The notes beneath the pieces were generated by a model, which had not been told where the DNA came from, made no database searches, and saw only the letters and a list, made by a program, of their open reading frames with translations. A program made the position numbers and the translations under genes. Below are positions 42,723-63,495 of a stretch of 64,000 nt of DNA, in pieces (position 1 is the first letter of the stretch; every line of letters starts with the position of its first letter). Source of the stretch: an uncultured Pseudomonadales bacterium (lineage in GTDB: Bacteria > Patescibacteriota > Microgenomatia > UBA1400 > PJMF01); NCBI GenBank assembly GCA_964648715.1, contig CAZYNM010000003.1, positions 29,430 through 93,429 of the forward strand, read 5' to 3'.

Positions 42723-42835
42723 ACTGTTCTTTTTTGTAATTAATTACTACTTATTTCTACATATTCAATATGCACAATAAGAGCAAGACCAGAAAGGATT
42801 ATACTGATTCGTTGCATTTGAGCAAGAGACAAAAA

Positions 42836-45923: not shown

Positions 45924-45945
45924 TGGGTGCACGGATTTCCAAAGG

Positions 45946-46020
45946 TGGGTCCGCCGGGATTCGAACCCGGGACGCACAGCTTAAAAGGCTGTCGCTCTAA
46001 CCGACTGAGCTACGGACCCA
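45946..46020 (-). tRNA. tRNA-Lys (anticodon UUU)
   Basis: Reverse complement TGGGTCCGTAGCTCAGTCGGTTAGAGCGACAGCCTTTTAAGCTGTGCGTCCCGGGTTCGAATCCCGGCGGACCCA. Anticodon stem ACAGC/GCTGT with loop CTTTTAA, T-loop GGTTCGAATCC, 3' CCA. Confidence 0.85.
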
Positions 46021-46095
46021 ACAGCCGGTAATTATACCAGCTCTTTTGTCTCCTCACAATTACAAAAGACTGGTATACTCTCGAGAGAGAACAGT

Positions 46096-46941
46096 ATGCC
46101 AGAATTGCCAGAAGTAGAGACCATTGCTCGCCGACTTGCCCAGGTGCTTCCTGGTAGACAGATCCTTTCTGTTCATGCACGAATGGTAAAAAGTTTTGTG
46201 GGTAATCCTGAGCAAGTAATAGGCAGCACCATCACCGGTATTACCCGAAAAGCTAAAGTGCTCACGATTTCCCTTGATACAGATGCTGTTCTGTTAGTCC
46301 ATCTCAAGATGACTGGTCAGCTTATTTATGTTGATGAAACGCATCGACTGGGTGGTGGACACCCTACTGCAGATTGGACAGCAGCACTACCCAGTGCACA
46401 CACACGCGTCACACTGGAACTTTCTGATTCTGCACATCTTTTCTTTAACGATCAACGGATCTTTGGGTGGATAAAAGTTGTTCCTAAAGCTCAGGTTACT
46501 CATGAGTTCAAAAACACCGCACCAGACATTATTGATCCTGCCATCACCGCTGAGTACTTTTATGAAAAAACCAAAACAAGAGGAATCCCCATTAAGCAAC
46601 TGTTAATGGACAATACATTCGTGGCAGGTGTAGGGAATATTTACGCCAATGATGCACTGCATTTAGCAGGTATTGCCCCAAACCGGCCTGCTCGTTCACT
46701 CACACAAGATGAAGCAGCGCGGCTGTATTCTTCTGCTAGAAATGTTATAGAGCTGGGCATTGCGCTGGGTGGTGCAACCATTGATCACTTTCGCCATGTA
46801 GATGGTTTTTCTGGTGAATATCAAAAAGAAGTGCGTGTCTATGGCAAAGAAGGCACTCCCTGTCGAATCTGTGGGACAACAATTCTTAAAACAGTGTTGG
46901 GTGGTCGAGGAACATTTTACTGTCCAGTGTGTCAACGTTAA
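46096..46941 (+). CDS. mutM: formamidopyrimidine-DNA glycosylase (Fpg/MutM)
   Basis: N-terminal PELPEVE (catalytic Pro2, Glu3) and a C-terminal zinc finger CRICGTTI...YCPVCQ. Confidence 0.9.
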   Translation: MPELPEVETIARRLAQVLPGRQILSVHARMVKSFVGNPEQVIGSTITGITRKAKVLTISLDTDAVLLVHLKMTGQLIYVDETHRLGGGHPTADWTAALPSAHTRVTLELSDSAHLFFNDQRIFGWIKVVPKAQVTHEFKNTAPDIIDPAITAEYFYEKTKTRGIPIKQLLMDNTFVAGVGNIYANDALHLAGIAPNRPARSLTQDEAARLYSSARNVIELGIALGGATIDHFRHVDGFSGEYQKEVRVYGKEGTPCRICGTTILKTVLGGRGTFYCPVCQR

Positions 46942-47867
46942 CGGAACTGCTTAAGTACCGCAGCACTCTTTGCAAGCTTTTGCTTTTCTTCCCAGTCCAG
47001 CTTGATCTCGAGTGTTTCAACAACCCCTTCTCTACCAATAATACAGGGCACACTGAGTGCTACACCCGAATGATCATAGTATTGATGCAGTGGGACTGAC
47101 ACAGGAAGAACGGTGCGCGAATCACGCAAGATTTTACTAATGATCTCAGAAACAACAGTTCCTATTCCATAAAAGGTGGCGCCTTTGGATGCGATAATTT
47201 TGTAGGCAGCTTGCTGTGCTTTTTCAAACGCATGCAGAGCTTGTTCTTCAGAAAACTTGGGCATGAGCCGGAGCGGTTGTCCCCCAACTGTGGCACTTGA
47301 GATAGCAGGAAACGACGTGTCACCATGCTCACCCAAGATGTACGCATGGATGCTGCTGGGGTTGATATGTAAAAATTCTGACAAATGAAAACGGAAACGA
47401 GCGGTATCTAATGTGGTTCCAGAACCGAAGATGCGTCCTTTGGGAAGACCTGCCACCTGATAGGCTCTATAGGTGAGAACATCAACAGGATTGCTGACAA
47501 TAAGAATGACGGCATCGGGAGCATACTTGAGGACTTCAGGGATGATGCCTTCAATAATTGCACAATTTTTTGTAGCTAGATCTAAACGAGTCTCACCAGG
47601 CTTTTGGGCTGCTCCGGCGGTGATAACCACAATATCGCTACCGGCAATATCAGCGTAATCTGACGTTGCTTTTATTTGAGCAAAGGGCAAAAAGCTCATC
47701 CCATGCTCCAAGTCAAGCTCTTCTCCAATTATCTCATCAATGCAGCGTCCCAGCAGAACAAGCTCATTAACTACACCTCGATGCAGCAGTGAATATGCTG
47801 CGGTCATACCAACTTTGCCACATCCTATGATAGAAACTTTGTTAGATTCGTGGGCAGTTTTTGACAT
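46938..47867 (-). CDS. ldh: L-lactate dehydrogenase (LDH/MDH superfamily)
   Basis: Rossmann N-terminus KVSIIGCGKVGMTAAYSL and the catalytic region GEHGDTSFP (LDH-type His loop). 309 aa. Confidence 0.8.
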   Translation of the reverse strand: MSKTAHESNKVSIIGCGKVGMTAAYSLLHRGVVNELVLLGRCIDEIIGEELDLEHGMSFLPFAQIKATSDYADIAGSDIVVITAGAAQKPGETRLDLATKNCAIIEGIIPEVLKYAPDAVILIVSNPVDVLTYRAYQVAGLPKGRIFGSGTTLDTARFRFHLSEFLHINPSSIHAYILGEHGDTSFPAISSATVGGQPLRLMPKFSEEQALHAFEKAQQAAYKIIASKGATFYGIGTVVSEIISKILRDSRTVLPVSVPLHQYYDHSGVALSVPCIIGREGVVETLEIKLDWEEKQKLAKSAAVLKQFR

Positions 47868-47889
47868 GAAAATTCCTTATACTTGGTCT

Positions 47890-48183
47890 TCACCTGTGTC
47901 CTACAAATATTCTTGATAAGAGCACACCTAATTTGCGAGGAATCGACCGAATGCCATCAAAGGGATCTGGCACAACGCCTTCAATGTTATAGTGTTCCGA
48001 CAAGAGAGCCACAACAGCGTCCGTATCAACTTTGCCTGCATGCACATGTCTATCAAGTTGAGTGAGTAATGCTTCTAATGCTTGGTCAGCACTCCTAGTT
48101 TGCGAAAGCACCTTAATGTACTCAGCATTGAGCATATGTGCTACCTGTTCAACGGTGGAGTATTCTGGTTTCTCTGGTCTCAT
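47890..48183 (-). CDS. hypothetical small protein (97 aa)
   Basis: ORF with typical composition and no known motif. Confidence 0.35.
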   Translation of the reverse strand: MRPEKPEYSTVEQVAHMLNAEYIKVLSQTRSADQALEALLTQLDRHVHAGKVDTDAVVALLSEHYNIEGVVPDPFDGIRSIPRKLGVLLSRIFVGHR

Positions 48184-48192
48184 ACTTCCATC

Positions 48193-49167
48193 CTACACTA
48201 TATGTTTACCCGAGCGTAAGAGGTGTTTTAGCTGTTCACTGATGGCCTCCACAGAGAGGCCGTAGTGATGTAAGAGCTGCTCTGATGTACCTGATTGGCC
48301 AAACTGGTCTTGGACAGCGAATGAATGAAATAAAAGCGGCCGCTTGGCTCCAGGCAAGTATCGTTGGGTCAATACTTGAGAAACAACGCTCCCCAAACCT
48401 CCCGCATATTGGTGATCCTCAAAGGTGAAAATACCCCATGTTTCGTTTGCTGCATCAAGTATACTGGCTGTATCTAGGGGTTTGATAGTGTGCATATTGA
48501 GTACCCGCACAGTTAAACCCTCAGCCATGAGTTTCTCAGCAACAGCTATCGCAGTATGAACAAGGGCCCCACAAGCAATAAAGGTAAGATCACTGCCCCA
48601 TTGGACACGCCGTGCCGTGCCAATCTGGAATGATGACTCATAGTTTATGACAGGGACGGGGTGCTTGCTGAGTCGAAGGTACGCGGGACCTGTGTGTTTG
48701 GCCAATGCAATGGTTGCGTCATGCGCTTCAGCAGCATCTGCAGGCACCACGACTGTCATGTTGGGTAGGACCTGCATCAGTGCAATATCCTCAAGGGATT
48801 GGTGCGTTGCTCCATCTTCTCCCGTTACCAAACCAGCATGACCACCTACCAGCTTAACATTGAGGTCACTATACGCAATGCTCGTACGGATCACTCCCCA
48901 AGAGTTGGCCGGATGGAAACACGCATAGCTGGCAGCAAAAGGGATTTTACCCGCCAGCGCAAAACCGGCAGCAACGCCTGCCAGGTTTTGTTCTGCAACA
49001 CCAAGATCAACAAACCGGTGAGGGAACTCCTCTGCAAAGGCACGCATTTTGACTGAATCTGTGAGATCAGCACAGAGTCCAACTACCTCTGGAAATTCTC
49101 GAGCTGCGGCAACTAAGCCTGTCCCAAATCCATCTCTAGTTGCTTGCAGCTTTTTTTCTGTGCTCAT
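48193..49167 (-). CDS. transketolase, C-terminal (pyrimidine-binding) subunit of a split transketolase
   Basis: Pyr-domain motifs (FVDLGVAEQNLAGVAAGFALAGKIPF, THQSLEDIALMQVLPNMTVVVPAD). The start is set at MSTEKK, overlapping the upstream stop (ATGA). Confidence 0.85.
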   Translation of the reverse strand: MSTEKKLQATRDGFGTGLVAAAREFPEVVGLCADLTDSVKMRAFAEEFPHRFVDLGVAEQNLAGVAAGFALAGKIPFAASYACFHPANSWGVIRTSIAYSDLNVKLVGGHAGLVTGEDGATHQSLEDIALMQVLPNMTVVVPADAAEAHDATIALAKHTGPAYLRLSKHPVPVINYESSFQIGTARRVQWGSDLTFIACGALVHTAIAVAEKLMAEGLTVRVLNMHTIKPLDTASILDAANETWGIFTFEDHQYAGGLGSVVSQVLTQRYLPGAKRPLLFHSFAVQDQFGQSGTSEQLLHHYGLSVEAISEQLKHLLRSGKHIV

Positions 49168-49985
49168 ATACCTAACTCCCGTAGTGCCTGTTCTGCTTCT
49201 AGTGCAGTGGGTGGTCTCCCGTGCCATTCCGGTTTGTTTTCCATAAAAGAAACACCTTTTCCGGGAACGGTATGACAAATAAGTGCGGTGGGCTGTGTAT
49301 TCTCCTGGTCTTGCAAAGCAGCCAAAATTTCCTCAAACGAGTGTCCGTCAACATCTATTACATTCCAGCCAAAACTGGCAATTTTTTCATTGAGTGGAGC
49401 AAGTGGCATGACGTTGTCTGTAAAACCATCAATCTGGATGTTGTTTCGATCCAGAAGGACCGTGAGATTACTCAAATGGTATTTCGCAGCATAGAGATAT
49501 GCTTCCCAGGTCTGCCCTTCCTGTTGTTCACCATCACTCATAACACAAAAAATACGATTTGGTTTGTTATCCATCTTAAAGGCTGTTGCTACTCCGCACG
49601 CTTGTGATAAACCTTGACCCAATGGGCCGCTCGTGTTTTCAATGCCAGGCAAAGAGCCAAGGTGTGGATGGCCTTGCAGTGGCGACTTGAAGGTTCTCAG
49701 TGTCATGAGTTCTTTTTGAGGAAAATACCCATGTACTGCCAGAGTTGCATACAGAACAGGACAAATATGACCATTTGAGAGAAACAAGTAGTCACGTTCA
49801 GGCCAAGTAGGATCTTGTGAGCGGTGCTTGAGAACTTTCCCATACAGGGTGGCGAAGACATCTGCCATACCCAGTGCTCCACCTGGATGACCACTGCCTG
49901 ATCGAGCAAGCATAGTAATAATGAGGCGACGAATACTACGAGCTGTTTCAGTCAGTTGCAGCTGAAGGTGTGTATCAACGGGCAT
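49164..49985 (-). CDS. transketolase, N-terminal (TPP-binding) subunit of a split transketolase
   Basis: GSGHPGGALGMADVFATLY (TPP-binding) and the GDG-like motif CVMSDGEQQEGQTWEAYLYAAKYHLSNLTVLLDRNNIQIDG. Confidence 0.85.
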   Translation of the reverse strand: MPVDTHLQLQLTETARSIRRLIITMLARSGSGHPGGALGMADVFATLYGKVLKHRSQDPTWPERDYLFLSNGHICPVLYATLAVHGYFPQKELMTLRTFKSPLQGHPHLGSLPGIENTSGPLGQGLSQACGVATAFKMDNKPNRIFCVMSDGEQQEGQTWEAYLYAAKYHLSNLTVLLDRNNIQIDGFTDNVMPLAPLNEKIASFGWNVIDVDGHSFEEILAALQDQENTQPTALICHTVPGKGVSFMENKPEWHGRPPTALEAEQALRELGI

Positions 49986-50042
49986 TGTATGTAGTGTACA
50001 GCAAAATACAGAGAGTGTGTACTAGAGATAGTCCTATAATAT

Positions 50043-50092
50043 TTGATTTCTTCGATACTTATGATATAATACATATTTATTACACATGTGAT
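50043..50092 (+). promoter_or_regulatory. promoter with extended -10 (TTGATT-16-TGaTATAAT) plus a 24-bp conserved operator-like element
   Basis: TGATATAAT at 50062-50070. The 24-mer ATACATATTTATTACACATGTGAT (50069-50092) is identical to 62003-62026 and has a palindromic core CACATGTG. Confidence 0.5.
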
Positions 50093-50300
50093 GCGATACT
50101 TCCGCCTTTTCAATGCGAAGTGGTAGGAAGACGCATCGCTCGTTAACATGATGTGAATATACCGATGGAGTCGGAACCAGAGGTTCTGGGCAGTATGCCG
50201 CCTGGGACCTTTGTTCCGATTCCATCAAGTACAAAAACAACGTGAGCAGACGTGTGCTAGTGGATAAGACTGGTCACGCCCCAGTATCGGCGTTTTTCAA

Positions 50301-52250
50301 GTGAGGAATCTCATGAATAAGTCTAGTCTCAGATATCTCTTGATCGCAGCGACTCTGGTTCTGCTGATCGCAGTTTCAACTATTGTTGCGCTTGCGCAAA
50401 CAACTCACTCAACCTTTGGCGCGAGCATGATGCCAAGAGCTTTGAGTGAGACAACGTACCAGAACGTGCTGGCCCTGAGCCGCGATGTGAAGCATATCAG
50501 CTCTACTACTGTGCATATCACCTGGAGCAACAACCAAACCGCTGATACAAGCTTCAGCCCAACTGTTGCGTCTGGAATTGAATATATGTACAAGGAAGTC
50601 CCCGCAGGCGTTACATCTGCCACTGTAACCATTGTTGAGGGCAACTACAGCGTGACATTCACGCCGGAGCTGCCCAAAAATAGTATCTTCAGCGTCAAGA
50701 CCTTCCGCAGCGGGAACGGGGTTCAATACCCGTTCCAGAATGTGTTGTATCTCTACCGAGATGTGCTGATTAAATCCAGCGTGGCGATCACCGTCGAAAC
50801 TACCGTTGGTTCACCAATCAATGAAAGTTTTAGTGACGCTACACCCAGATACCAGGCACAGGAAAAGTACGTTGTGTTACCAAATGCAGCAAACGCCATC
50901 ACTGTGACCATCACCGAAAACGGCACAGAACTTGTCTACCCGTTGACGGTTGATCCAATCATCCCAACGCCAACCCCTACCGAGACACCCGTGAGCGGTG
51001 TCTCATGTCAGTATTGGCAAGGTCGCCCAGACCTACGGGTTGGATGGATCTACGGCTACATCACAAACGGATTATCTGATGCACAAGTTGTGGCAAAATT
51101 AGGTGACACCATTGTGGGCTGTACAACTACAGAGGCTGGTGGACTGATGAAGTTCACGGCGCTGCATCGTTTATACAGCACCCAAACAGAAGGGACATAC
51201 ACCTTCTGGGTGAATGGTATTGAGTACATTTCTGAGCCTGCAGTCAGTGTTGAGTCAATGAATGGCGATAGCTATGAAATCTCGCTCTCTCCTAAAGATG
51301 AGCCAACGCCAACACTCATTGCGACACAGCCAACGAACACACCTGTACCAACACCAACTGAAGGGGCAACCGCTACGGATACCCCCGCAGCAACAGATAC
51401 CCCGGCAGCAACTCCGACAGAAGCAGCAACCGCGACCAACACTCCGCAACCTACCAACACACCGGTGAGTGATCCCACGGCTACTGCCACTGTGCCCTCA
51501 ACCGGCTGGATTGAAGTTCAGCCTGCGACGATCAGCCGCACCGTGGAGTACGTGAGTGAGACACAAGTCTTTACCTGGAAAGTGAAAAATGTCAGCGGTA
51601 AGGCCACCAGCTTTACCGCAATCATGTTGCAGCCAGTTGGACGTGGTTGCTTCAGCAGCCCTTCATTCCAGTCATCGCTTGCCGCGGGAGAAACGAAAGT
51701 TTTCTCAACCACCGTGTCGAGCACCTGCCTGGGTGAGGGTGTGCACAATCGGTCATACCAGTTCATTGAGCAGGTTCCGATCAGCGCGACGCCGCGCAAC
51801 GCAAACCTGCCCATCGTGGTCACCGTGCTGCCCAATCCTTGGGAAGTGTCAATCACGACCCCGGGGGCCATCAGCGCTACGATGCCCGCCACCTTCACCA
51901 TGACCGTGAAGAACGTTGGCGATCGTGTCCGCTTGGGCGCTGCCCAGGTGTACGTCGATGCATCGCCTTTCATGATCACGCCAACCGTGCAGATCAATTC
52001 AGGCGAAGTGCATGCGAGCCCGTTTGGCCAAAACGTCACGCGCTACCTCTGGGCTTTCGAAATTCAGCCTGGCGAAACCGCAGCCTTTACCAGCGGCGCC
52101 CCCACCAAAGACGTCACGTTGTTTACGCTGTACCCAGACACCTGGGGCTGGCAACAACCTGACCTTCAGTCTGGCGCAGCCTCTCTAGCCGTGTTCCCGC
52201 AAGGCCAAAGCGGTGTCAAGGTGATCTACCTGCCCGTTATCGTAAAGTAA
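50301..52250 (+). CDS. large secreted hypothetical protein with Thr/Pro-rich linker (G+C-rich locus)
   Basis: Signal peptide ...LLIAVSTIVALAQT. 649 aa with an internal PTPTLIATQPTNTPVPTPTEGATATDTPAATDTPAATPTEAATATNTPQPTNTP linker. The C-terminus ends ...KVIYLPVIVK. Antisense ORFs in this region are G+C artefacts. Confidence 0.6.
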   Translation: MRNLMNKSSLRYLLIAATLVLLIAVSTIVALAQTTHSTFGASMMPRALSETTYQNVLALSRDVKHISSTTVHITWSNNQTADTSFSPTVASGIEYMYKEVPAGVTSATVTIVEGNYSVTFTPELPKNSIFSVKTFRSGNGVQYPFQNVLYLYRDVLIKSSVAITVETTVGSPINESFSDATPRYQAQEKYVVLPNAANAITVTITENGTELVYPLTVDPIIPTPTPTETPVSGVSCQYWQGRPDLRVGWIYGYITNGLSDAQVVAKLGDTIVGCTTTEAGGLMKFTALHRLYSTQTEGTYTFWVNGIEYISEPAVSVESMNGDSYEISLSPKDEPTPTLIATQPTNTPVPTPTEGATATDTPAATDTPAATPTEAATATNTPQPTNTPVSDPTATATVPSTGWIEVQPATISRTVEYVSETQVFTWKVKNVSGKATSFTAIMLQPVGRGCFSSPSFQSSLAAGETKVFSTTVSSTCLGEGVHNRSYQFIEQVPISATPRNANLPIVVTVLPNPWEVSITTPGAISATMPATFTMTVKNVGDRVRLGAAQVYVDASPFMITPTVQINSGEVHASPFGQNVTRYLWAFEIQPGETAAFTSGAPTKDVTLFTLYPDTWGWQQPDLQSGAASLAVFPQGQSGVKVIYLPVIVK

Positions 52251-52406
52251 GTAAGTTCACATCATGATTGTCGACACCTCACTCTCTGCTCAGAGTGAGG
52301 TGTTTTTGTATCCAAGCGCATACTTTTTCACCTACTTGCGCCCGGGTCTCTCCAAGCACTATAGTGGAATAAGTAGATATTTTTCACCGCACGGAAAGGG
52401 TGTGCA

Positions 52407-53669
52407 ATGTTTTTGCATGCACCAAGAGTGTTCATGATCGGATGGGAGTACCCTCCACATAATAGTGGTGGGCTTGGGGTGGCATGCGAAGGCATGACCC
52501 AAGCTTTATCGGGGCAAAATGCGCAAATCTACTTTACCCTTCCCTATGCTCTCCCTCTGTCTGTTGGACACATGAAGGTTCTTGATTGCAGTGACCCAAC
52601 CTGGTTTGTAGAGGGTAAGCTAGCCCAACCTCCTTTTTTTGCCTATAGTACCGAATCACCTACTCCGGTCCGGACGTTCTCTGGTCGAGGCGTTTCGGCT
52701 ACTGTATTGGAATCGCTGCCGCAGTCAGAGTTGGAAAGCAAAGTAGAAGAATATGCCGAGCTTGTTACGGCTCGAGGAGTAAAGAATCACAGCTCTTATG
52801 ATCTTGTTCACGCACATGACTGGATGTCATTCCCTGCTGCATTGAAGCTTTCTCAAGCAGTACGCAAACCTTTTGTTGCACATATACACTCCACTGAGTT
52901 TGACCGGATCCCTGGTGGGCAAGGCAGTTCCTACATCATGGAGACCGAGTATCGAGGCATGACTGCGGCAACACGAGTGGTGGCGGTAAGTTACTACACC
53001 AAACATGTTTTGGTGAAAGAATATGGTATAGATCCAGAAAAAATAGAAGTGGTACACAATGGTATCGAACCATTGAGTGCGCGTGATCAACAAGAACTAG
53101 GCAGAGCACGGCGCACATTTGCCCCAGATCGCCCAGTCATTGTCTTCATGGGTAGGTTGACCATGCAGAAAGGTACTGAATACTTTCTTGCACTGGCTGA
53201 AGCAGTCAGTAAACAAGTGCCGGAAGCGCTCTTTATTGTGGCTGGCGATGGAGACATGTATCACCAACTACTCGTACAGAATGCGCAACGCGGTTTATCA
53301 GCTTCACTCCTTTTTAGCGGGTTTGTACGTGATGCTCAGCGAGCACAATTATTGAATAGAGCAGATGTGTTTGTGATGCCTTCACTCTCTGAGCCGTTTG
53401 GATTGGTGGCTCTTGAGGCAGCGCAGCGGAATACTCCTGTCATAGTTTCAAAGCATACTGGTGTAGCAGAAGTCCTCCCCAGTGCTATACAAGTTGATTT
53501 CTGGGATATCCACAAAATGACTACAGAATTGGTGAAGCTTATCAAAAACGATACGACTCGAGCTCGTCAAATTGAGGCACAGTTTGCCGATTTAGCAAAT
53601 ACAACATGGAACCATACTGCCGAAAAGATGAAACGGGTGTACAGTACTGCTTTTTTTGGAAGTACCTAG
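52407..53669 (+). CDS. GT-B glycosyltransferase, glycogen/alpha-glucan synthase-like (GT4/GT5)
   Basis: N-terminus FMIGWEYPPHNSGGLGVACEGMTQAL (E-x-PP...GGL pattern of archaeal-type glycogen synthases) and C-terminal EPFGLVALEA (E-x7-E motif). Confidence 0.7.
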   Translation: MFLHAPRVFMIGWEYPPHNSGGLGVACEGMTQALSGQNAQIYFTLPYALPLSVGHMKVLDCSDPTWFVEGKLAQPPFFAYSTESPTPVRTFSGRGVSATVLESLPQSELESKVEEYAELVTARGVKNHSSYDLVHAHDWMSFPAALKLSQAVRKPFVAHIHSTEFDRIPGGQGSSYIMETEYRGMTAATRVVAVSYYTKHVLVKEYGIDPEKIEVVHNGIEPLSARDQQELGRARRTFAPDRPVIVFMGRLTMQKGTEYFLALAEAVSKQVPEALFIVAGDGDMYHQLLVQNAQRGLSASLLFSGFVRDAQRAQLLNRADVFVMPSLSEPFGLVALEAAQRNTPVIVSKHTGVAEVLPSAIQVDFWDIHKMTTELVKLIKNDTTRARQIEAQFADLANTTWNHTAEKMKRVYSTAFFGST

Positions 53670-54921
53670 CATCATGCCTCAACTCTGTTTGTATTTTCAT
53701 CTCCATCAACCATGGCGTTTGCGTGAACTAACAGTGTTTGATGTTGGGCAGGGTACCGATTATTTCAAAAATCACACTGAAAACCAAAACAAGATCATTT
53801 TTCAAAAAGTTGCACACAAGTCATACATTCCCATGCTATCGCTCTTGTTGGAACTGTGTAAAAAACATCCCAGATTTAGTTGTGCATTCTCTATCACTGG
53901 CGTTTTCATTGAGCAAGCAAAGGCGTATGCCCCACAAGTTATGGATCTAATTAAAGAGCTTGTTGCAACTGGTAAAGTTGAGCTACTTGCAGAAACCTAC
54001 TATCATTCACTGGCAGCACTGTATTCGCCAAGTGAGTTTAAAGTGCAAGTGGGACGTCATATACAGTTACTTCAGAAAGAGTTTCACTATACGCCGACAG
54101 TTTTTAGAAATACTGAGCTCATATACTCCAATGCTATAGCTCAACAAGTACAGAAGCTTGGTTTTGTGGGTATGCTTACTGAAGCAGTTCCACGCTATCT
54201 TCAGGGAAGGCCCAAAACGCAGATATACTACAGTACCCCTTCTGCTTACTTACCACTCCTCTTGAAGCATGCTGAGTTATCAGATGATATTGCTTTTCGT
54301 TTTAGCGAAAAAACTTGGCAGTGGTATCCTCTCACAGCAGAACGGTACTTGGAGTGGGTTGAGGTGTATACGCAAGATGAATATGTCAATCTGTTCATGG
54401 ATTTTGAGACATTTGGAGAACATCAGTGGGAGGCATCTGGCATCTTTGCTTTTTTTGCTGCGTTTATAGAACAATTTCTTGCCAAGCCATGGAATAAATG
54501 TGTGACGCCATCACAGGCATTTATGTATGAAAAACAGAAACAGGTATATACCAAGAATATGAAGCGAAAGCCTCGAATTTTCGTACCATCAAAGGAGCAA
54601 GTGTATGACGTGCCGGATGCTATTTCTTGGGCAGATGTAGATAGAGATCTAACTGCTTGGGTAGGGAATGACTACCAAGTTGACACTCTTAAAAAAATGT
54701 ATGAACTGGTGAGCATAATGCATGCTTCAAAGGATACACAACTTGTAGAAGATTGGAGACTTTTACAAACAAGCGATCATTACTACTACATGTGTACCAA
54801 ATGGGCAGCAGATGGAGACGTGCATGCATATTTTAGCCCCTACCGCTCTCCACATGAAGCATATCGGCGGTTTTGTATTGCTTTAACAGATGTAATGGGA
54901 CGTTTGACACACACTGGTTGA
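53656..54921 (+). CDS. glycoside hydrolase family 57 enzyme (alpha-amylase / glucanotransferase / branching-enzyme family)
   Basis: N-terminus LCLYFHLHQPWRL (GH57 HQP signature) and a conserved Glu/Asp region (FMDFETFGEHQWE). Confidence 0.75.
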   Translation: MEVPSIMPQLCLYFHLHQPWRLRELTVFDVGQGTDYFKNHTENQNKIIFQKVAHKSYIPMLSLLLELCKKHPRFSCAFSITGVFIEQAKAYAPQVMDLIKELVATGKVELLAETYYHSLAALYSPSEFKVQVGRHIQLLQKEFHYTPTVFRNTELIYSNAIAQQVQKLGFVGMLTEAVPRYLQGRPKTQIYYSTPSAYLPLLLKHAELSDDIAFRFSEKTWQWYPLTAERYLEWVEVYTQDEYVNLFMDFETFGEHQWEASGIFAFFAAFIEQFLAKPWNKCVTPSQAFMYEKQKQVYTKNMKRKPRIFVPSKEQVYDVPDAISWADVDRDLTAWVGNDYQVDTLKKMYELVSIMHASKDTQLVEDWRLLQTSDHYYYMCTKWAADGDVHAYFSPYRSPHEAYRRFCIALTDVMGRLTHTG

Positions 54922-54934
54922 TTCAGGGTATACT

Positions 54935-56794
54935 GTGTGCAAGGAGTTGACTATGGAAGTGTTTGGTATTTTTTTTGCTCTCAGTATTCCACTTCTCTTT
55001 CTTGGTGGTATCGCATATGCATTATTTGTACTGTATCAACTGATTCAGCGCCGTAAAGCAGGTCTGCCTCCTCAGGATGAACCCCTGCAGTACCCACATG
55101 GCTTTAGTGCATTTATTGCTTGTGTATTGGTAGGCTTTCATGCTGGATTGTATTGGTCTGGTGCATCAAGCCGCGTGCCTGTGTTGGGTATAGCAGTATT
55201 TACCTCTGCACTCGCAGTTGGGTGGGCATGTGTGTACAGGAAGCGTACAACACCCTTTCTCATGTCACTTATAGCCATTCTCTTTTTGAGTAACTGGGGT
55301 TCTGTTGTGAGAGCGAGTGGATTAGTCCAAGGAATAAATGGCATAATTGCTGTTGTTTCAACGCTCCTCTTGTTTATTTATTTTGTCCGCAATTTTGCGT
55401 ACACAAGCTTGTTAAGCCTCATCGAGACCCTGCTATTATTGATTCCTTATGGAATTAAGCAGTTTTTTGTTGTGCTTTTCCACTCCTTCCGTTCTGCAAC
55501 AGGCAAGTCAGCCTCACACGTTGCTCAGTGGATTAAGACCCTCAGTTTAATGCTTTTTGTGTCACTCTTATTTATTGCAATACTTTCAAGCGCAGACCCA
55601 GTGTTTGCAGAAATAATTCGTACCTTTAGAGATGAATTGCTGGGCAGAGTTTTCTGGTCCATCCTCATTCTCTTTGCTGCGGCGCAAGCACTTACTAGTA
55701 AGCTCAAAGAACAGAAAAATGAACCATGGCAACTTCGGTTTTTATCAGAACGGGATATTGCAACAATGTTGATTAGTGTCCTGGTGATAGGCGGAATTTT
55801 CCTTTCTGTACAGTATACCTATCTTTTTAGCGGTTCCCGTCAGCTTCTTGTCAACCTTGGCCTCACTTTCAGTGAGTATGTTCGTAAGGGCTTTGTTGAA
55901 GTTCTTATAGCCACATTAGCCGGTGGTGTTCTGGCATACCTTGCTGCTTTAAAAATTCGCATCCTTGAACGCTCATCAATGAAAAGCATGTTGCAGCTTG
56001 GTGTGGGAACTCTGTTAGTAGAACTTGCCTTATTCCTTGTCTCTGCCCTCAAACGAGACCTATTATATGTTGATATTTATGGGTTGACGCGCACACGAAT
56101 TGTGGGAGGGCTGTTCTTGTTGTGGCTTGCTTTTTTCTTGGTTTTACTCCTCTTTTTTATGCTTCGCAAACAATTTAGTGAAGCAAAAGTTGCGGTGGGG
56201 TTATTTGTTGCAAGTTGTATCGTGTGGGCATTTATTAACGTGCTCAACGTTGATGCTTTGGTGGCGAATGCATCACCAGGGCACCATGAATATACAGATT
56301 ATTTTTATGTTGCACTGCTCTCAGAGGATGCAGGAACTGCTTGGGTACGAAATATCCCAGAACTGGAGCAGACTGTCATGCGCTTAACAGCACTGCAGGA
56401 ACTCACTCCCGTACAAAAATCCGAACTAGCTGGAGCAAAATTGGCTATTATTGCACTTCTTGAAAAGAAGGATAAACTACAGGCCGCGTATGGACCAGAA
56501 ACACGTCCAGAACGAGACATTCCAATTCAAAATAAAAACGACCGTCGTTGGCAAATGTGGAACTATGCACAGTCTAAGGCATATAAATTGTATGCCAGTG
56601 GCACAGTGTCGCAAGAAAAGTTGACAACGCTCAAAGCCAATATCGAGAAGTATCAAAAACAACGTGGAATATCACTTTTTGAGCAAGAGCAGCGCTTACT
56701 ATATGAACTAAAGTATCCCTTTGTGTCGGTAGAACTTACCTACTATCCTGAAGACTATGGGCAGTATCAAGTAACACCTCCGCAAGTAAAGTAA
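54935..56794 (+). CDS. large polytopic membrane protein with soluble C-terminal domain, unknown function
   Basis: 619 aa with ~12 hydrophobic segments then a ~170-aa hydrophilic tail. It is embedded in the glucan cluster. Confidence 0.45.
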   Translation: MCKELTMEVFGIFFALSIPLLFLGGIAYALFVLYQLIQRRKAGLPPQDEPLQYPHGFSAFIACVLVGFHAGLYWSGASSRVPVLGIAVFTSALAVGWACVYRKRTTPFLMSLIAILFLSNWGSVVRASGLVQGINGIIAVVSTLLLFIYFVRNFAYTSLLSLIETLLLLIPYGIKQFFVVLFHSFRSATGKSASHVAQWIKTLSLMLFVSLLFIAILSSADPVFAEIIRTFRDELLGRVFWSILILFAAAQALTSKLKEQKNEPWQLRFLSERDIATMLISVLVIGGIFLSVQYTYLFSGSRQLLVNLGLTFSEYVRKGFVEVLIATLAGGVLAYLAALKIRILERSSMKSMLQLGVGTLLVELALFLVSALKRDLLYVDIYGLTRTRIVGGLFLLWLAFFLVLLLFFMLRKQFSEAKVAVGLFVASCIVWAFINVLNVDALVANASPGHHEYTDYFYVALLSEDAGTAWVRNIPELEQTVMRLTALQELTPVQKSELAGAKLAIIALLEKKDKLQAAYGPETRPERDIPIQNKNDRRWQMWNYAQSKAYKLYASGTVSQEKLTTLKANIEKYQKQRGISLFEQEQRLLYELKYPFVSVELTYYPEDYGQYQVTPPQVK

Positions 56795-56797
56795 AGT

Positions 56798-58807
56798 ATG
56801 GCACGTGCACTCACTCTTGGTAATGGCAAAGTGTTGGTATGTCTAGATGAATTTGGCTTTGTTCGCGACTTTTATTTCCCCTATGTTGGTCTTGAAAATC
56901 AAGTGAGTGGTGAAAAGCATAAAATTGGAGTGTGGGTGGATGGTTCGTTCTCTTGGATTGATGATGGTTCATGGACTATCACCATAGGATATAAACCTGA
57001 AACGATGATTGGCTACCTAGTATGTAAAAAAGAAAGTTGGGGTATTACCGTAGTTATGGAAGATTGTGTCTATAACGAAGAGACGCTCTTTATGCGTCAG
57101 GTTGATGTGTATAACCATACGGAACGTGATCGTACTGTCAGACTATTCTTTCATCAGGTCTTCCATATTCAAGAAAGTAAAAAAAGAAATACCGCGTTTT
57201 TTGATCCTACTCATACAGCAGTTGTTCACTATAAAGGACGACGAGTTTTTGTAGTCAATGGAATGACTGAAGCAGGTATGCCTTTGGATCAATATACAGT
57301 AGGTGCCTATCAGTTTGAAGGTAAAGAGGGAGCATATAAAGATGCAGAAGACGGGGAGTTATCAAATAATGCTGTGGAGCATGGGTCAGTTGATTCAGTT
57401 ATTCGCTTCACCACTCTCATTGCTCCCAAAGCCAAAACACGTCTCTACTACTGGATAGCTGCCGGAAAATCACTTGAAGCAGCATTCTCACTCAATGCAT
57501 TGGTGGGCACGAAAACACCAGCAGCAATTCTTCACTCTACAGAAAGTTATTGGCACGCGTGGCTAGCCACAAAGTCATTTGATATAGCTCTGTTGTCAGA
57601 ACAAGAACAGAAGCTTTTTTATACCTCACTATTTGTTTTACGGTGTCACATGGATACTCATGGCAGTGTTATTGCTTCAGCAGATAGCGCCATGATTGAA
57701 TATGGCAAAGACGATTATGCATATATGTGGCCACGTGATGCTGCATTTATTATTGGGACACTGTGCGCTGCTGGGTTTCCTGAGGTCACCAAACCATTTT
57801 TCACTTTTTGCAAGAATGTACTGCATCCAGATGGGTACCTTCATCATCGGTTTAGACCAGATGAAAGTCTTGGCTCAACATGGCACTCTACCACTACTCA
57901 GCGTGAGTGGTTGCGTGACAAAATTTTACAACTCCCTATTCAAGAAGATGAGAGTGCCAGTGTGCTGGTAGCCTTGTGGAAGTATTATGAAGCATCCAAA
58001 GATATTGAATTTATTGAAGAGCTCTATAAGCCACTCATAGAAAAAATTGCCCAATTCCTAGTGCACTTTAGAGATACTCAGACAGGTCTTCCACTGCCCT
58101 CATATGACTTGTGGGAAGAACAATTTGGTGTGTCTACCTATACGTGTGCAGCAGTCTATGCGGGCTTACAAGCCGCAGCACGTTTTTCTGAAGTACTGGA
58201 CAAACGTAATCACATGAGAGATTACAAAAAGGCAGCAGACGAAATTAAACAAGCAGCCATAGATCACTTGTTTAGTAAGCAGCTTGATTCTTTTGTTCGT
58301 ACAGCTGTACTTTCTGATGGAAAAGTAGAACATCATGAGCAAATTGATGCGAGTAGTTTGTTTGGGTTGTGGTATTTTGGGATGTTGGAGCAAGATCATC
58401 CACTGTTTGTCAAAACGCTGCGACAGGTTCAAGTTCGGCTTCAAAATCCTGGGCCTACAGGTGGATATATACGTTACGAACGTGATCACTACTTTAAATC
58501 AAAAGATCTTTCAAACCCATGGATCATTACTACGTTATGGGAGGTGGAGCGACGATTAGTACAACCCATTGTCTCTGACAGTGATTTTTCGTACGCGGAG
58601 GACATATTCTCCTGGGTCCAAAAACATCAGTTCCAGTCTGGAGTATTAGCAGAACAGCTTGACCCCTATACGGGTGCCTCACTGTCGGCCACACCACTTG
58701 TGTGGAGTCATGCCGTATATGTTGAAGCAGTTCTTTTGTATTTGGAAAAGAAAACAGGAATGACAGCCGAGTTTCAAAAAAAAGCTCGTGCTCTCCATGA
58801 GCTATAG
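56798..58807 (+). CDS. glycoside hydrolase family 15 (glucoamylase / glucodextranase-like)
   Basis: N-terminal beta-sandwich start LGNGKVLVCLDEFGFVRDFYFPYVGLENQV is typical of prokaryotic GH15. (alpha/alpha)6 catalytic region motifs YMWPRDAAF, LWEEQFGVSTYTCAAVYAG and PLVWSHA. Confidence 0.8.
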   Translation: MARALTLGNGKVLVCLDEFGFVRDFYFPYVGLENQVSGEKHKIGVWVDGSFSWIDDGSWTITIGYKPETMIGYLVCKKESWGITVVMEDCVYNEETLFMRQVDVYNHTERDRTVRLFFHQVFHIQESKKRNTAFFDPTHTAVVHYKGRRVFVVNGMTEAGMPLDQYTVGAYQFEGKEGAYKDAEDGELSNNAVEHGSVDSVIRFTTLIAPKAKTRLYYWIAAGKSLEAAFSLNALVGTKTPAAILHSTESYWHAWLATKSFDIALLSEQEQKLFYTSLFVLRCHMDTHGSVIASADSAMIEYGKDDYAYMWPRDAAFIIGTLCAAGFPEVTKPFFTFCKNVLHPDGYLHHRFRPDESLGSTWHSTTTQREWLRDKILQLPIQEDESASVLVALWKYYEASKDIEFIEELYKPLIEKIAQFLVHFRDTQTGLPLPSYDLWEEQFGVSTYTCAAVYAGLQAAARFSEVLDKRNHMRDYKKAADEIKQAAIDHLFSKQLDSFVRTAVLSDGKVEHHEQIDASSLFGLWYFGMLEQDHPLFVKTLRQVQVRLQNPGPTGGYIRYERDHYFKSKDLSNPWIITTLWEVERRLVQPIVSDSDFSYAEDIFSWVQKHQFQSGVLAEQLDPYTGASLSATPLVWSHAVYVEAVLLYLEKKTGMTAEFQKKARALHEL

Positions 58808-58822
58808 GAGTATGCTAGAAGC

Positions 58823-59752
58823 ATGACACAACTTTATTTAGGAATTGATGGTGGGGGTACAAAAACTGATGCCATCTGTACTGATGAGCGAGGTACACAG
58901 TTTGGAATAGGAAGTTCTGGTCCAACAAACCTTACATCTACTTCCGTAGGCGCAGCTAGTTTCAATCTCAAAGAAGCGATCCGTCAGGCACTTGAACATG
59001 TACCTGCAGAACACACACTGGTATCCACTGTCATGGGACTGGCGGGTTTAGATACAGAACAAGAGTTTGAGATTGCTCATCGTACCTTTCTTGATATCGT
59101 TAGGTTGTTTGGTGGCCAGCGTCTCACCCTCATGAACGACAGTATGATTGCCCTTGCCAATGGCACCGATAATGAAAACGCGGTTATCCTTATTTCTGGT
59201 ACGGGTTCAATCTGTTTTGGTAAAAATGCTCAAGGAGAAACTGCCCGTGTGGGTGGTATGGACTTTTTATTGACAGATCAAGGCTCAGGATATGATATTG
59301 GTCGTCATGTGCTCCGTGAAGCAGTCAAGAGCTATGATGGACGACGCAGTAAAACAGTACTAGAACAACTGGTGTGTGAACACTTTAGTATCCAAAGTAT
59401 TGAACATCTTAAAAACGAAGTGTACAACCCTCCGCTTAGTAAGATTGAAGTGGCTGAAGTAGCACAGCTCTGCAGTCGTGCCTATGAAGCACAAGACCAA
59501 GCAGCTATAGATATTTTTCACTGGGTAGAAGTTGAGTTGGCACAGCTTGCCACAACAACATTACGTAAACTTCACTTAGAGAAAGTACCTACAGACCTCG
59601 TCTTATCTGGCTCTGTATTGCATATACCGCATGTTCGCGCGGCACTAGATGCAAGACTACATGAACAGTTCCCGCAATTGACGATTGTTTTTCCAGAAAA
59701 GCCACCTATGTATGGTGCTTTAAAGCTTGCGCTTAAAGAACATACGGTATAA
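58823..59752 (+). CDS. BadF/BadG/BcrA/BcrD-type ATPase family sugar kinase (N-acetylglucosamine kinase-like)
   Basis: N-terminus LYLGIDGGGTKTD (ASKHA phosphate-1 motif) and GGMDFLLTDQGSGYDIG (adenosine motif). Confidence 0.65.
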   Translation: MTQLYLGIDGGGTKTDAICTDERGTQFGIGSSGPTNLTSTSVGAASFNLKEAIRQALEHVPAEHTLVSTVMGLAGLDTEQEFEIAHRTFLDIVRLFGGQRLTLMNDSMIALANGTDNENAVILISGTGSICFGKNAQGETARVGGMDFLLTDQGSGYDIGRHVLREAVKSYDGRRSKTVLEQLVCEHFSIQSIEHLKNEVYNPPLSKIEVAEVAQLCSRAYEAQDQAAIDIFHWVEVELAQLATTTLRKLHLEKVPTDLVLSGSVLHIPHVRAALDARLHEQFPQLTIVFPEKPPMYGALKLALKEHTV

Positions 59753-59761
59753 TACATCTTC

Positions 59762-60190
59762 ATGAGACCACATACGTTTGCCACCCTGGCAGTTTTTCTA
59801 TTTTTCCTTCGTCATCCCAAAGAGCACCGCTATAATTTCTATGCGCAGATTCTTGAGAAACGCCACGGGCGAAATTATAAAGAACATGATTATGACTTTA
59901 CTGTGCTTTACCGAACTGAAGAAGTTCTTAAGTTGCGCATTGGGAGGATGTGGACCTGTGAGGTTGAGATTCGCCCAGAAAAAGTTGGCTCTGACAAATA
60001 TATAATCAAACATAATCATCGTGAGTATGTCACTGAAGAATTTGAAATTAAACATCCACGTGAGTTGTTTGGTGAGTACCGCTCCCATGAGCGTTTTACC
60101 CGCTTTCGCTCATATGATTTTACTCGTGATGCACTCGAAATGGTGTGTGACCACGATGGTACCGAATTTGAGTTACGAGTTTTACGTTAA
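59762..60190 (+). CDS. hypothetical protein (142 aa)
   Basis: ORF with normal composition. Its stop overlaps the convergent capA-like gene by 4 nt. Confidence 0.4.
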   Translation: MRPHTFATLAVFLFFLRHPKEHRYNFYAQILEKRHGRNYKEHDYDFTVLYRTEEVLKLRIGRMWTCEVEIRPEKVGSDKYIIKHNHREYVTEEFEIKHPRELFGEYRSHERFTRFRSYDFTRDALEMVCDHDGTEFELRVLR

Positions 60191-61185
60191 CGAAGTTTGG
60201 TCTGACCATTTTTTTCTAGGAGTATGGGAATTTCTGCTGCATCCACAATTTCATCGTTTGAGATGGTAAGTCCAATAAGCATGCCTTGTTGAACCGCTGG
60301 TTCAAAATACTGATCAAACACAAAATTTCCTAAAGAATAATAAATATGTCTACCGTTATAGAGCTCATGCTGTTGCACAACATGGGGATGTGAACCAATA
60401 ACTGCATCTGCACCTGCGTCAATGAATGTGTGAGCAAGCTCTTGAATCCCTGCATTGGCAGTTGGCACATATTCGGTGCCCCAGTGGGTATATACAAGCA
60501 CAATGTCTGATTGAGGACGTACCGCAGCTAAGTCTGCAAGTACTCGTGCTTCTGCATCTGTGCCAAATGCATTGTAATTTACGAATCCTATACGTATGCC
60601 ATTTTTTTCTAGAATGAGGCTGCGTTCTTGTGTGGTATCTGCTGCCGCGTTACCAAAGAACTGTACATTGGCTTCTTGTAGGTACTGTTTCGTTTGGGCA
60701 AGACCCTGGGTACCAAAGTTCAAAATATGATTGTTTCCTAGGTTCACGACATGAATAGTGTGTGTATACAGAAGTGTGGCAACAATAGGGTCAAACGTAA
60801 AAATATAGTTATGTGGTGAACCAACTGCACTACCCAAGCTTTTTGATGGTGCAGAAGTAATAGGACCTTCAAGATTGGCAATCACTAGGTCATAACTTGC
60901 CAAGACTGGTTTGAGCTCTTGGAGTATGTGGTCGGTGCCATACGTTGTTATTACTTTTCTGATGTTTCGATCAAACATCATGTCGCCGCCAAAGAGTATG
61001 GTTAGCTTACGCTCAGTGGGAATACTACTGGGTGAAGGTGTAGTCTCCATTTGTTCAGCTACTGGGGCTATCAACTGTGCACTATTTTCTTTGGAAGGCG
61101 AAAGAGTTTGTAGCGTGTAAATAAGATACACCACACCAATAAGGGAGAAAGTGAGGAATAAACTACGTCTTATCAGATCTGTCAT
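60187..61185 (-). CDS. CapA/PgsA-family metallophosphoesterase (poly-gamma-glutamate/capsule synthesis-like)
   Basis: An N-terminal TM is followed by LTILFGGDMMFDRNIR...VIANLEGPITS...VNLGNNHILNFG (calcineurin-like motifs of the CapA family). Confidence 0.7.
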   Translation of the reverse strand: MTDLIRRSLFLTFSLIGVVYLIYTLQTLSPSKENSAQLIAPVAEQMETTPSPSSIPTERKLTILFGGDMMFDRNIRKVITTYGTDHILQELKPVLASYDLVIANLEGPITSAPSKSLGSAVGSPHNYIFTFDPIVATLLYTHTIHVVNLGNNHILNFGTQGLAQTKQYLQEANVQFFGNAAADTTQERSLILEKNGIRIGFVNYNAFGTDAEARVLADLAAVRPQSDIVLVYTHWGTEYVPTANAGIQELAHTFIDAGADAVIGSHPHVVQQHELYNGRHIYYSLGNFVFDQYFEPAVQQGMLIGLTISNDEIVDAAEIPILLEKNGQTKLR

Positions 61186-62008
61186 TGGTTAAAAAATAGT
61201 GATCAATAATAGATATGATACCATTATCTTCTTGCGATGGAGCAATAATATCTGCCAGCTTCTTAAGCTCACTATGAGCATTTTCCACTGCAACTTTGAG
61301 TCCACATGCGGCCAACAATGCAAAGTCATTATAGCCATCACCAATTGCCACAACTTGTTTGGGTGACAGGTCCATGTGTTGCATCCAGACCAGTACAGCA
61401 GAGTGCTTGTTGACCCCACCCGCCATGACATCAAGTCCAAAGGATGATTTTGAAAGGATTTTTTGTACACTCACCTCATGCGCAAATGCTGTTTCTATAG
61501 TTCGACAGAGTGTATCTATCTGTGGCTCTGTGTGCTCAGATGCAACATAGAGTTTGGGGATAGGGGCAGAAAAATCACATTCTCGTATCGGGGCAATATG
61601 AGCAAATTCTTTGATACGATCTCGATCAAAACGCTCCGAAAAATAGGCCGTATCTCCTGCTTCTACAATAAATGACACATCAGCTTCAAGTAAGATGGCA
61701 GAAACTTGCTCTGCAATCTGAGGCTCCATGTATTTCTGGTAAAGATAGGTGTGTGTGGTAGGATCAATGATCTCTGCTCCTCCTCGAGTAATAATGGGAT
61801 GCTGAAGCGCTAAATCCTGTGATGCTTGTCGGATGTAACCAGCGTATGCTCTCCCAGTGGCCAAAGCAAAGATGTAGCCAGCCCCTATGAGCTCTCTAAT
61901 AGCTTGAGCGACCTCTCTGTTAACTTTCTTGTCAGAACCCACTAACGTATTGTCAAAATCAGAAACAAGGGCAGTATATAGATGACTTTCAGTTTTGTTT
62001 GTATACAT
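61163..62008 (-). CDS. HAD-superfamily hydrolase, Cof-like (subfamily IIB) sugar-phosphatase
   Basis: Motif I VSDFDNTLV, motif II LATGR, motifs III/IV K...GDGYNDFALL. Confidence 0.8.
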   Translation of the reverse strand: MYTNKTESHLYTALVSDFDNTLVGSDKKVNREVAQAIRELIGAGYIFALATGRAYAGYIRQASQDLALQHPIITRGGAEIIDPTTHTYLYQKYMEPQIAEQVSAILLEADVSFIVEAGDTAYFSERFDRDRIKEFAHIAPIRECDFSAPIPKLYVASEHTEPQIDTLCRTIETAFAHEVSVQKILSKSSFGLDVMAGGVNKHSAVLVWMQHMDLSPKQVVAIGDGYNDFALLAACGLKVAVENAHSELKKLADIIAPSQEDNGIISIIDHYFLTNDRSDKT

Positions 62009-62031
62009 ATTTATTACACATGTGATATAAT
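62003..62031 (+). promoter_or_regulatory. second copy of the 24-bp operator-like element fused to an extended -10 (TGTGaTATAAT)
   Basis: ATACATATTTATTACACATGTGAT at 62003-62026 followed by ATAAT. It overlaps the HAD gene start codon and lies ~235 nt upstream of the 62265 gene. Confidence 0.5.
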
Positions 62032-62264
62032 ATAGGCCGTATATGTGTGTTACTTGATTCTCTTTTCGAGAATCGCGTAAGTGACCCCATTATACAGTTC
62101 TTTAACAGACTGAGAAGAGAACCTCTCTGCTTTTGGGAAGAAGATGGTGGTGTATCGCAGTACACCCTCTTCTTCTTCCCATCGGCGGGGAGTCTGTACA
62201 GAAGTGGTGATGAACCATGGATGTACAGTGAAGTTCAAAATTTTCATGTAGTAAGGAGTTTCCT

Positions 62265-63380: not shown

Positions 63381-63396
63381 ACACTAGCGCCAAAGC

Positions 63397-63450
63397 TCTT
63401 GCCTGCCCTCACACCCACGGAAAAAAGCAAGAGACTTTAATCCGTGGGTG
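63397..63450. terminator. bidirectional terminator/hairpin cluster between convergent genes
   Basis: 11-bp stem CACACCCACGG...CCGTGGGTGTG followed by the 14-bp perfect palindrome GTGCGCTAGCGCAC. Confidence 0.55.
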
Positions 63451-63495
63451 TGCGCTAGCGCACTTCTCTCTTCTCAGTCTCTTGTTTTTATTTTT

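Follow-up and report, generated by a model that had tools for sequence, protein, structure and literature searches.

Operators that lie over the core promoter, such as lac O1 at the transcription start and the LexA and Fur boxes at the -35/-10, are among the closest described counterparts of the element reported here, and sites within the footprint of RNA polymerase are typical of repressors, not of activators. Like these operators, the 24-mer ATACATATTTATTACACATGTGAT is short and discrete, lies within the polymerase footprint, recurs at different promoters and shows conservation far past neutral expectation, and relatives show a clear 17-bp dyad (6-5-6) at the matching positions. It departs from them in that its own dyad is degenerate, its conserved parts are direct hexamers and two copies are present within the 64-kb stretch of DNA that was analysed as a whole (hereafter the window). 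Taken together, the comparisons presented here indicate that the 24-mer is a real, selected, promoter-embedded cis-element and most likely an operator. We assign a probability of roughly 0.45 to the reading that it serves a putative DNA-binding protein that would occlude RNA polymerase.

Exact copies of ATACATATTTATTACACATGTGAT stand at 50069-50092 (copy A) and 62003-62026 (copy B), both on the + strand. An earlier note on this DNA had listed the same two sites and none elsewhere in the window, and a mismatch scan together with shuffling bears this out: no third copy exists at up to 3 mismatches within the 64-kb window, and 0 of 100 dinucleotide shuffles contained any match, so that an exact 24-bp repeat is far beyond chance. 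The 11-mer sub-fragments of the element do not recur elsewhere in the window in a meaningful context. When both upstream regions are aligned, no similarity extends past the 24 bases and the edges are sharp. Both copies in the 64 kb are located at promoters. Searches beyond the window returned matches of a different kind. The 18-mer ATTTATTACACATGTGAT had 9 single matches among GTDB representatives, in unrelated taxa and at chance level, and AYATYTATTACACATGTRAT had 22 matches in JGI metagenome scans and 1 in viral scans, all of them unrelated and mostly AT-rich; the matching contigs had no BLAST similarity to the window. A literature search for the sequences themselves gave no match.

A consensus promoter scan places the 50-kb promoter at 50043-50070 (+ strand; TTGATT, N16, TGaTATAAT) and the 62-kb promoter at 62002-62031 (+ strand; TATACA, N18, TGaTATAAT). 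Both copies abut this extended -10, as had been noted before: TGATATAAT lies at 50062-50070, where it overlaps the first 2 nt of copy A, and at 62023-62031, where it overlaps the last 4 nt of copy B. Copy A carries TACATA at 50070-50075 and TACACA at 50081-50086, 11 bp apart and followed by TGTGAT, and the copy starts within the -10 and extends to about +16 of the predicted transcript. The -35 and spacer of the 62-kb promoter are occupied by copy B. The repressor-type positions that had been proposed, over the start at one locus and over the -35/spacer at the other, thus agree with the promoter scan and its predicted starts. At 62 kb, a 20-bp imperfect palindrome with 12-nt arms (83% complementary) is also present.

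Downstream of the copies lie two genes for secreted proteins, one at 50313-52250 (+ strand; ~645 aa, PT-rich linkers, C-terminus IYLPVIVK) and one at 62265-63380 (+ strand; 371 aa, C-terminus VFMPLIQK). Their start codons at 50313 and 62265 are 221 and 239 nt downstream of copies A and B, and their G+C content is 0.48-0.55 versus 0.42-0.45 in neighbouring stretches, which matches the description of G+C-rich secreted-protein genes ~210-240 nt downstream. Both products have Sec-type signal peptides; neither has a Pfam match, and no significant BLASTP match connects the two. A search of 5.8 billion proteins yielded essentially one close homologue of each. In exact-protein look-ups, the sole match was a 1.9-kb Logan contig that is identical to the window, and the 371-aa protein had no record, and an AlphaFold2 model of the latter from a 2-sequence alignment was unusable (pLDDT 34). 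The neighbours on the other side are divergent from the secreted-protein genes: a transketolase N-terminal subunit (49164-49985, - strand) at 50 kb and a Cof-type HAD hydrolase (61163-62008, - strand) at 62 kb. As already recognized from the sequence, copy B overlaps the start of the HAD gene. Read on the - strand, it comprises the ATG at 62008-62006, which is the sole possible HAD start codon, and 18 nt upstream of that codon. A divergent HAD promoter is predicted by the consensus scan at 62089-62116 (- strand; TTCTCA, N16, TATAAT) and transcription from it would include copy B in the HAD 5' UTR. The scanned unannotated ORFs of the window encode no DNA-binding domain, in agreement with the earlier statement that no HTH regulator is encoded there.

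Selection on the element was assessed with a relative, R, represented by a Logan contig of SRR31212439 (19,109 nt; loci L011 and L012). R is colinear with window positions 45941-63947 (18 kb) at 78% nucleotide identity and carries the homologues of both secreted proteins on one contig. Identity at 4-fold degenerate sites between the two is 0.453 (n=1231, nine orthologous genes) and thus near saturation. Copy B is identical in R at 24/24 positions and copy A, which reads ATACACATCTATTACACATGTAAT in R, at 21/24; at the 4-fold-site rate the neutral probabilities are ~6e-9 and ~2e-5, respectively. Compared with 45% at 4-fold sites, these values place both copies beyond neutral expectation and indicate purifying selection on each. 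The 50-kb promoter of R keeps the -35 and -10 hexamers, while its 16-nt spacer is identical at only 8/16 positions and has a 1-nt indel. This pattern supports the assignment of the 50-kb promoter and shows that unconstrained promoter DNA does diverge. The 62-kb promoter is 100% conserved within an invariant block of ~52 nt, and there the spacer is the 24-mer; the varying 50-kb spacer and the invariant 62-kb spacer therefore form an internal control. The 24-mer is, on this evidence, a DNA element maintained by selection within two core promoters, those of lineage-specific genes for secreted proteins.

Conservation is evidently not unique to the 24-mer, since whole promoter and leader regions are kept. 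Nowhere in the 18-kb comparison is conservation higher than in promoters and leaders (50100-50299 and 62000-62199 are 90-95% identical, against a mean of 78%), and at 62 kb the overlap with the HAD start codon and 5' UTR confounds the reading of this conservation. Intergenic promoters, leaders and terminators in general (52251-52406 and 63400-63560, for instance) share 88-96% identity in the window and R, compared with ~78% for coding DNA, and constraint on the non-coding DNA of this pair is unusually strong and dense. A strain similar to R (L045, SRR22388148) lacks copy B and its promoter. A deletion of ~193 nt in R coordinates, located at L045 2613-2633 and equivalent to window 61883-62095, lies at a 13-nt microhomology and takes out ~40 codons from the start of HAD together with the 24-mer, the -10 and hairpin 1 of the leader. 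Upstream of the deletion the contig is 97% identical to R, and the secreted-protein gene downstream is 85% identical. Either the module is dispensable in this strain or the contig is mis-assembled.

More distant relatives place the element in a wider family of promoters. The best named homologues of the GH15 protein of the window come from Candidatus Woesebacteria, Candidatus Pacebacteria and the Patescibacteria group, and the window therefore derives from a Microgenomates-type CPR bacterium. Via GH15 (74% identity), two further contigs were found, L036 (Logan SRR14271343) and L039 (JGI 3300042471), and the 24-mer is absent from both even at 7 mismatches. Between transketolase and GT4 they carry tandem genes without Pfam match, each after 400-550 nt of non-coding DNA with the block order GTCCTATAA, TTGAC(A/T)-N17-TATAAT, palindrome TACACAT-TTA-ATGTGTA, hairpin, box GCTC(A/G)TTAACA and long hairpin. 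The 50-kb region of the window aligns with this block at GTCCTATAA (50031-50039, + strand, just upstream of the -35 and also present in the cassettes of L036 and L039) and on through the -35 and -10 elements, the palindrome region, the box (50138) and hairpin 2, and in this alignment the 24-mer at 50 kb is the counterpart of the palindrome region. Two classes of cassette correspond in position to the two copies in the window. In class 1, TACACAT-TTA-ATGTGTA follows just after the -10 (4 copies), as copy A does, and in class 2 (L036_2 and L039_4), TACATA-N5-TATGTA fills the spacer of a TGtAATAAT promoter (2 copies), as copy B does. The 17-bp palindrome of these promoters can be written as TACAYA-N5-TRTGTA, a 6-5-6 dyad. 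L036 and L039 have 3-4 related sites, all of them at promoters. No divergent gene adjoins three of the cassettes (L039_2, L039_3 and L036_1), so that the motif goes with the promoters of the secreted-protein genes.

The 50-kb protein shares its N-terminal 210 aa with L039b (51% identity) and its C-terminal 250 aa with L036a (40% identity), and the secreted proteins form a mosaic paralogous family. The cassettes front fast-evolving secreted-protein genes of a Microgenomates-type CPR lineage. In three other relatives (L040, L042 and L043), transketolase directly adjoins GT4 and both secreted-protein genes and cassettes are missing. In the window, R, L036 and L039, 1-4 secreted-protein genes with cassettes are inserted at this position, and the transketolase-GT4 site is a hotspot for gain and loss of secreted-protein genes.

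To define what is conserved, 11 promoter regions were aligned on the -10, with positions counted from its first base. Two TACAYA/TRTGTA-type hexamers exactly 11 bp apart, start to start, are found in 10 of the 11 promoters; the exception, a promoter at 33.5 kb of the window, has no hexamers. They are direct repeats at +5 and +16 in the 50-kb promoters of the window and R and at -22 and -11 in their 62-kb promoters. In the L036/L039 cassettes they are inverted, with TACACA at +11 to +15 and TGTGTA at +24 to +26 in class 1 and with hexamers at -16 and -5 in class 2. The 11 regions contain 22 hexamers versus 2.1 in shuffles (maximum 9 in 2000), the regions being related and the events not independent. 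The alignment identifies the pair of TACAYA hexamers 11 bp apart as the conserved feature, and the 24-mer would be this clade's version of a hexamer-pair motif that marks the promoter-leader cassettes. The earlier note had instead given the element a palindromic core, CACATGTG, and this part of it has to be given up. CACATGTG is present in the 24-mer, but as an 8-mer it occurs in the window at chance frequency (3 found, 2.5 expected), and the substitution G22A breaks it in the 50-kb copy of R, which has CACATGTA instead; it is therefore not the conserved feature. The three substitutions of R affect the degenerate Y of one hexamer, the spacer between the hexamers and a position outside both, so that the invariant parts are the two hexamers. 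Dyad symmetry of the 24-mer is weak and not conserved and its direct hexamers are conserved, whereas the dyad of L036/L039 is a clean 6-5-6. A near-palindrome TGCATA-TTGAA-TATGTA (TGCATATTGAATATGTA, 42758-42774) lies ~30 nt past the -10 that is predicted for the ATP-synthase operon; with 1 mismatch to the 6-5-6 dyad it was considered as a further copy of the motif and rejected, because it is within chance expectation.

From these observations we infer protein binding, repression and co-regulation. A putative, probably dimeric, sequence-specific DNA-binding protein would bind the 24-mer and, positioned from the -10 to ~+16 at 50 kb or over the -35/spacer up to the -10 at 62 kb, would exclude or trap RNA polymerase. 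Both secreted-protein genes would be repressed together, and at 62 kb the bound protein would also straddle the point where the divergent HAD gene begins. Since both copies are inside the polymerase footprint, as judged from predicted starts, the protein would probably act as a repressor. The same 24 positions are identical at two loci where they have different positional roles, across a divergence that saturates neutral sites, and the two promoter classes of this clade have one derived form in common. Together with the pairing of motifs in the sister genomes, this is what would be expected of one trans-acting reader. On the other hand, direct hexamers here versus inverted ones in the sister genomes are awkward for a single protein family, the overlap of copy B with the HAD start codon and 5' UTR could explain its invariance, and copy A, being transcribed, could be under constraint as RNA. 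Further points against the operator reading are that the 64 kb contain two copies, that no DNA-binding domain came up among the scanned unannotated ORFs, that the dyad symmetry is weak, that whole promoter and leader regions are conserved along with the 24-mer and that L045 lacks copy B with its promoter. The proposal that a single regulator co-controls both loci is thus strengthened in part, by selection, by placement at promoters and by counterparts in relatives. It is weakened by the finding that both promoters belong to one promoter-leader cassette family, so that common descent or copying contributes to the identity of the copies.

This last point leads to the alternative that the 24-mer is a relic of the cassette, shared by descent or copying, with each copy kept for its own local reason and with no common factor. 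At 50 kb, the local reason would lie in the discriminator and initially transcribed region or in the 5' end of the leader, and at 62 kb in the promoter spacer and the translation-initiation region of HAD. The alignment of the 50-kb promoter with the L036/L039 cassettes from the GTCCTATAA block through hairpin 2, the mosaic family of secreted proteins, the conservation of entire intergenic regions between the window and R and the HAD start codon within copy B are all consistent with such a history, and a relic with purely local constraints is plausible. However, different local constraints should allow drift, and the two copies of the window and copy B of R are identical at 24/24 positions. Ongoing gene conversion would be a poor explanation for this: the flanks of the two copies have no similarity, and in terms of minimal RecA substrates a 24-bp tract without flanking homology supports gene conversion poorly. 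A matching motif is, moreover, kept in both promoter classes of the sister genomes. The lack of drift is thus left unexplained, as the copies are identical even though 4-fold sites are near saturation, and we consider this alternative possible but rather unlikely.

A constraint on RNA rather than on DNA has to be considered in view of the leaders of both genes, which are structured. The 50-kb leader (50093-50312, + strand) contains hairpin 1 at ~50090-50137, the box GCTCGTTAACA at 50138-50148, of which the first six bases (50138-50143) pair with GTGAGC at 50242-50247, hairpin 2 at 50166-50224 and a terminator-like hairpin with U-run at 50276-50297 that precedes the Shine-Dalgarno sequence (SD) at 50303-50307. 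The 62-kb leader (62032-62264, + strand) contains hairpin 1 at 62049-62085, in which R has a compensatory U-A to C-G change, a box-like GTTCTTTAACA at 62097-62107 and a long hairpin at 62135-62180. Compared with shuffles, the two leaders fold with z = -6.0 (50 kb) and -6.3 (62 kb). The 50-kb type was compared across four sequences from two lineages. Hairpin 2 is 99% paired in this comparison, versus 30-49% when partners are slid, and has 4 compensatory pairs and several G-U pairs that fit only the + strand, with the changes located in the distal stem. The box pairs as GCUCRU with RUGAGC (50138-43 with 50242-47) via G-U to A-U changes. At the Rfam gathering threshold only tRNAs were detected; the two window leaders gave weak microRNA-type and other chance-level matches, with scores far under the gathering cutoffs, and the L039 leaders none. 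By these criteria the ~230-nt leaders are conserved RNAs with structure, which covariation supports in one case. They may represent an undescribed cis-regulatory RNA of CPR bacteria and may be a more interesting feature than the 24-mer. Across the family, the leaders of secreted-protein genes measure ~230-400 nt and share the box GCUC(A/G)UUAACA followed by a long hairpin; further examples are located in L036 at 1830-2115 and 3890-4140 and in L039 at 1876-2059, 3450-3854, 5408-5659 and 6750-7023.

Stem-loops at the 5' end of the mRNA are known to stabilise transcripts, the ompA and aprE leaders being examples. The 24-mer could accordingly be a 5'-terminal stabilising stem-loop or a pairing partner of the leader, or it could be a site in the 5' UTR of HAD or transketolase on the - strand that is recognised by an RNA-binding protein or a small RNA. 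As in ompA and aprE, the L036/L039 palindrome starts a few nt from the predicted transcription start (~+3 to +21), where it could form a 7-9-bp hairpin at the mRNA 5' end. Copy A would be transcribed from ~50077 and pairs with 50250-50265 in the minimum-free-energy fold, copy B would lie within the HAD 5' UTR if the predicted - strand promoter is used, and the leaders themselves are clearly structured (z scores and covariation). Unlike those stem-loops, the version in the window cannot fold, as CACAUGUG is unable to make a hairpin, and copy A is predicted to pair differently in R than in the window. For copy B and the class-2 palindromes, the -10 of their own gene comes further downstream, so that those mRNAs do not contain them. 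The - strand version is countered by the three cassettes without divergent gene, in which the motif goes with the secreted-protein promoters, and by the G-U pairs of the leader hairpin, which favour the + strand. We therefore regard an element that acts at the RNA level as improbable.

If the 24-mer is an operator, its reader could in principle be a response regulator of the OmpR/PhoB family, of WalR/VicR or PhoP type, which would bind as a head-to-tail dimer to hexamers 11 bp apart. The - strand of the 24-mer has the sequence TGTAAT-N5-TGTAT(A/T), and both copies (50068-50084 and 62002-62018, - strand) match 11/12 positions of the WalR/VicR consensus TGTWAH-N5-TGTWAH (PMC4168254). The three substitutions of R are all outside the two TGTWAH hexamers. 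WalR-type regulons are rich in secreted cell-envelope proteins (PMC9210968), and secreted-protein genes lie downstream here. WalRK, however, is described as a system of Firmicutes (PMC9210968). Matches with at most 1 mismatch are not enriched in the window (7 found, 13 expected by chance), and the repeats in the sister genomes are inverted, not direct. The two-hexamer arrangement with 11-bp period is that of WalR/VicR and PhoP/PhoB sites, but the positions of the 24-mer imply repression, whereas activation from upstream of the -35 is usual for WalR/VicR-type sites. The match is a lead, not evidence, and a regulator of this type is in our view quite improbable.

Direct 24-bp repeats 11,934 bp apart that flank an 11.9-kb segment, with an 8-bp direct repeat CGATACTT on both sides of copy A, might also suggest att- or dif-like recombination sites or the ends of a mobile element, but we reject this very improbable explanation on gene content and synteny: the interval has no integrase or transposase and holds GT4, GH57, DUF4153, GH15, a BadF-type kinase, PGA_cap and HAD, the order GT4-GH57-GH15-BadF beside transketolase is kept in relatives without the element, the homologous motifs of L036/L039 are promoter parts of tandem genes, the sole viral-contig match is an unrelated AT-rich sequence, and CGATACTT, considered as a target-site duplication, lacks conservation in R and comes close to what chance predicts for the region size. 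DnaA boxes were rejected as well. Their consensus, TTATNCACA, is matched by the 24-mer at 6-7/9 positions, the class-2 palindromes have no CACA and clustering of the kind seen with DnaA boxes is missing; the arms of some L036/L039 palindromes match at 8-9/9, for example TTATACACA in L039_1 on the - strand. None of the sites of LexA, Fur, CRP/FNR, NrdR, ArgR, TyrR, CIRCE, dif and DnaA fits both copies.

Returning to the operator reading, an operator alone would be an ordinary kind of element, and its interest is modest and derives mainly from the surrounding cassette and the leader RNAs in a poorly understood phylum. CPR bacteria (Patescibacteria) have tiny genomes, few regulators and a host-associated lifestyle that depends on surface and secreted proteins, and to our knowledge their transcriptional regulation is almost unexplored. 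Conserved promoter elements and structured leaders thus offer concrete, testable handles on the control of the CPR surface proteome. Speculatively, and we think this unlikely as a whole, the promoters and leaders could constitute an undescribed cassette with two layers that controls fast-evolving secreted proteins with the C-terminal tail [YF][LM]P[LIV]I-x-[KRN]. In the first layer, the hexamer-pair operator would be read by the putative regulator. In the second, the structured ~230-nt leader would regulate in cis, in the manner of a riboswitch, an attenuator or a protein-binding RNA, with its GCUCRUUAACA box pairing RUGAGC, its long covarying hairpin and a terminator-like hairpin that precedes the SD in some copies. 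The C-terminal motif of the secreted proteins would possibly be a new sorting signal.

The motif [YF][LM]P[LIV]I-x-[KRN] is shared by the secreted proteins right before the stop codon. It is encoded in the window at 52227-52250, 63357-63380 and 27846-27872 and at the ends of genes of L036 and L039, with examples such as IYLPVIVK, VFMPLIQK, YLPLINR, FLPIINR, FMPLINR and MLPLIQK. A trypsin-like protease (26652-27872) ends in YLPLISSQ, and YLPLV and YLPIV are found near the N-termini of the ORFs 28020-29246 and 25703-26893. In contrast to sortase and exosortase signals, the motif is not followed by a transmembrane segment. It may be a lineage-specific sorting or processing signal. Small proteins with an RRM domain (PF00076) are encoded in L036 (14044-14505) and L041 (7715-8107), a few genes downstream of the GH15-BadF cluster, and may be relevant to regulation by leader RNAs; no such gene was seen in the window.

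The 33.5-kb promoter mentioned above lies within window positions 33295-33580 on the - strand (TTGACC...TGATATAAT) and has a leader of ~250 nt without the 24-mer. This leader contains an exact copy of the leader box GCTCGTTAACA at 33480-33470. The gene behind it is a 193-aa ORF without Pfam match and without signal peptide, and its terminator (32658-32734) contains a 22-nt perfect inverted repeat. A segment of the leader, CATGGGGAAACTTACTTTTTA, is 81% complementary to one arm of this terminator, and the 5' and 3' UTRs of the gene might pair.
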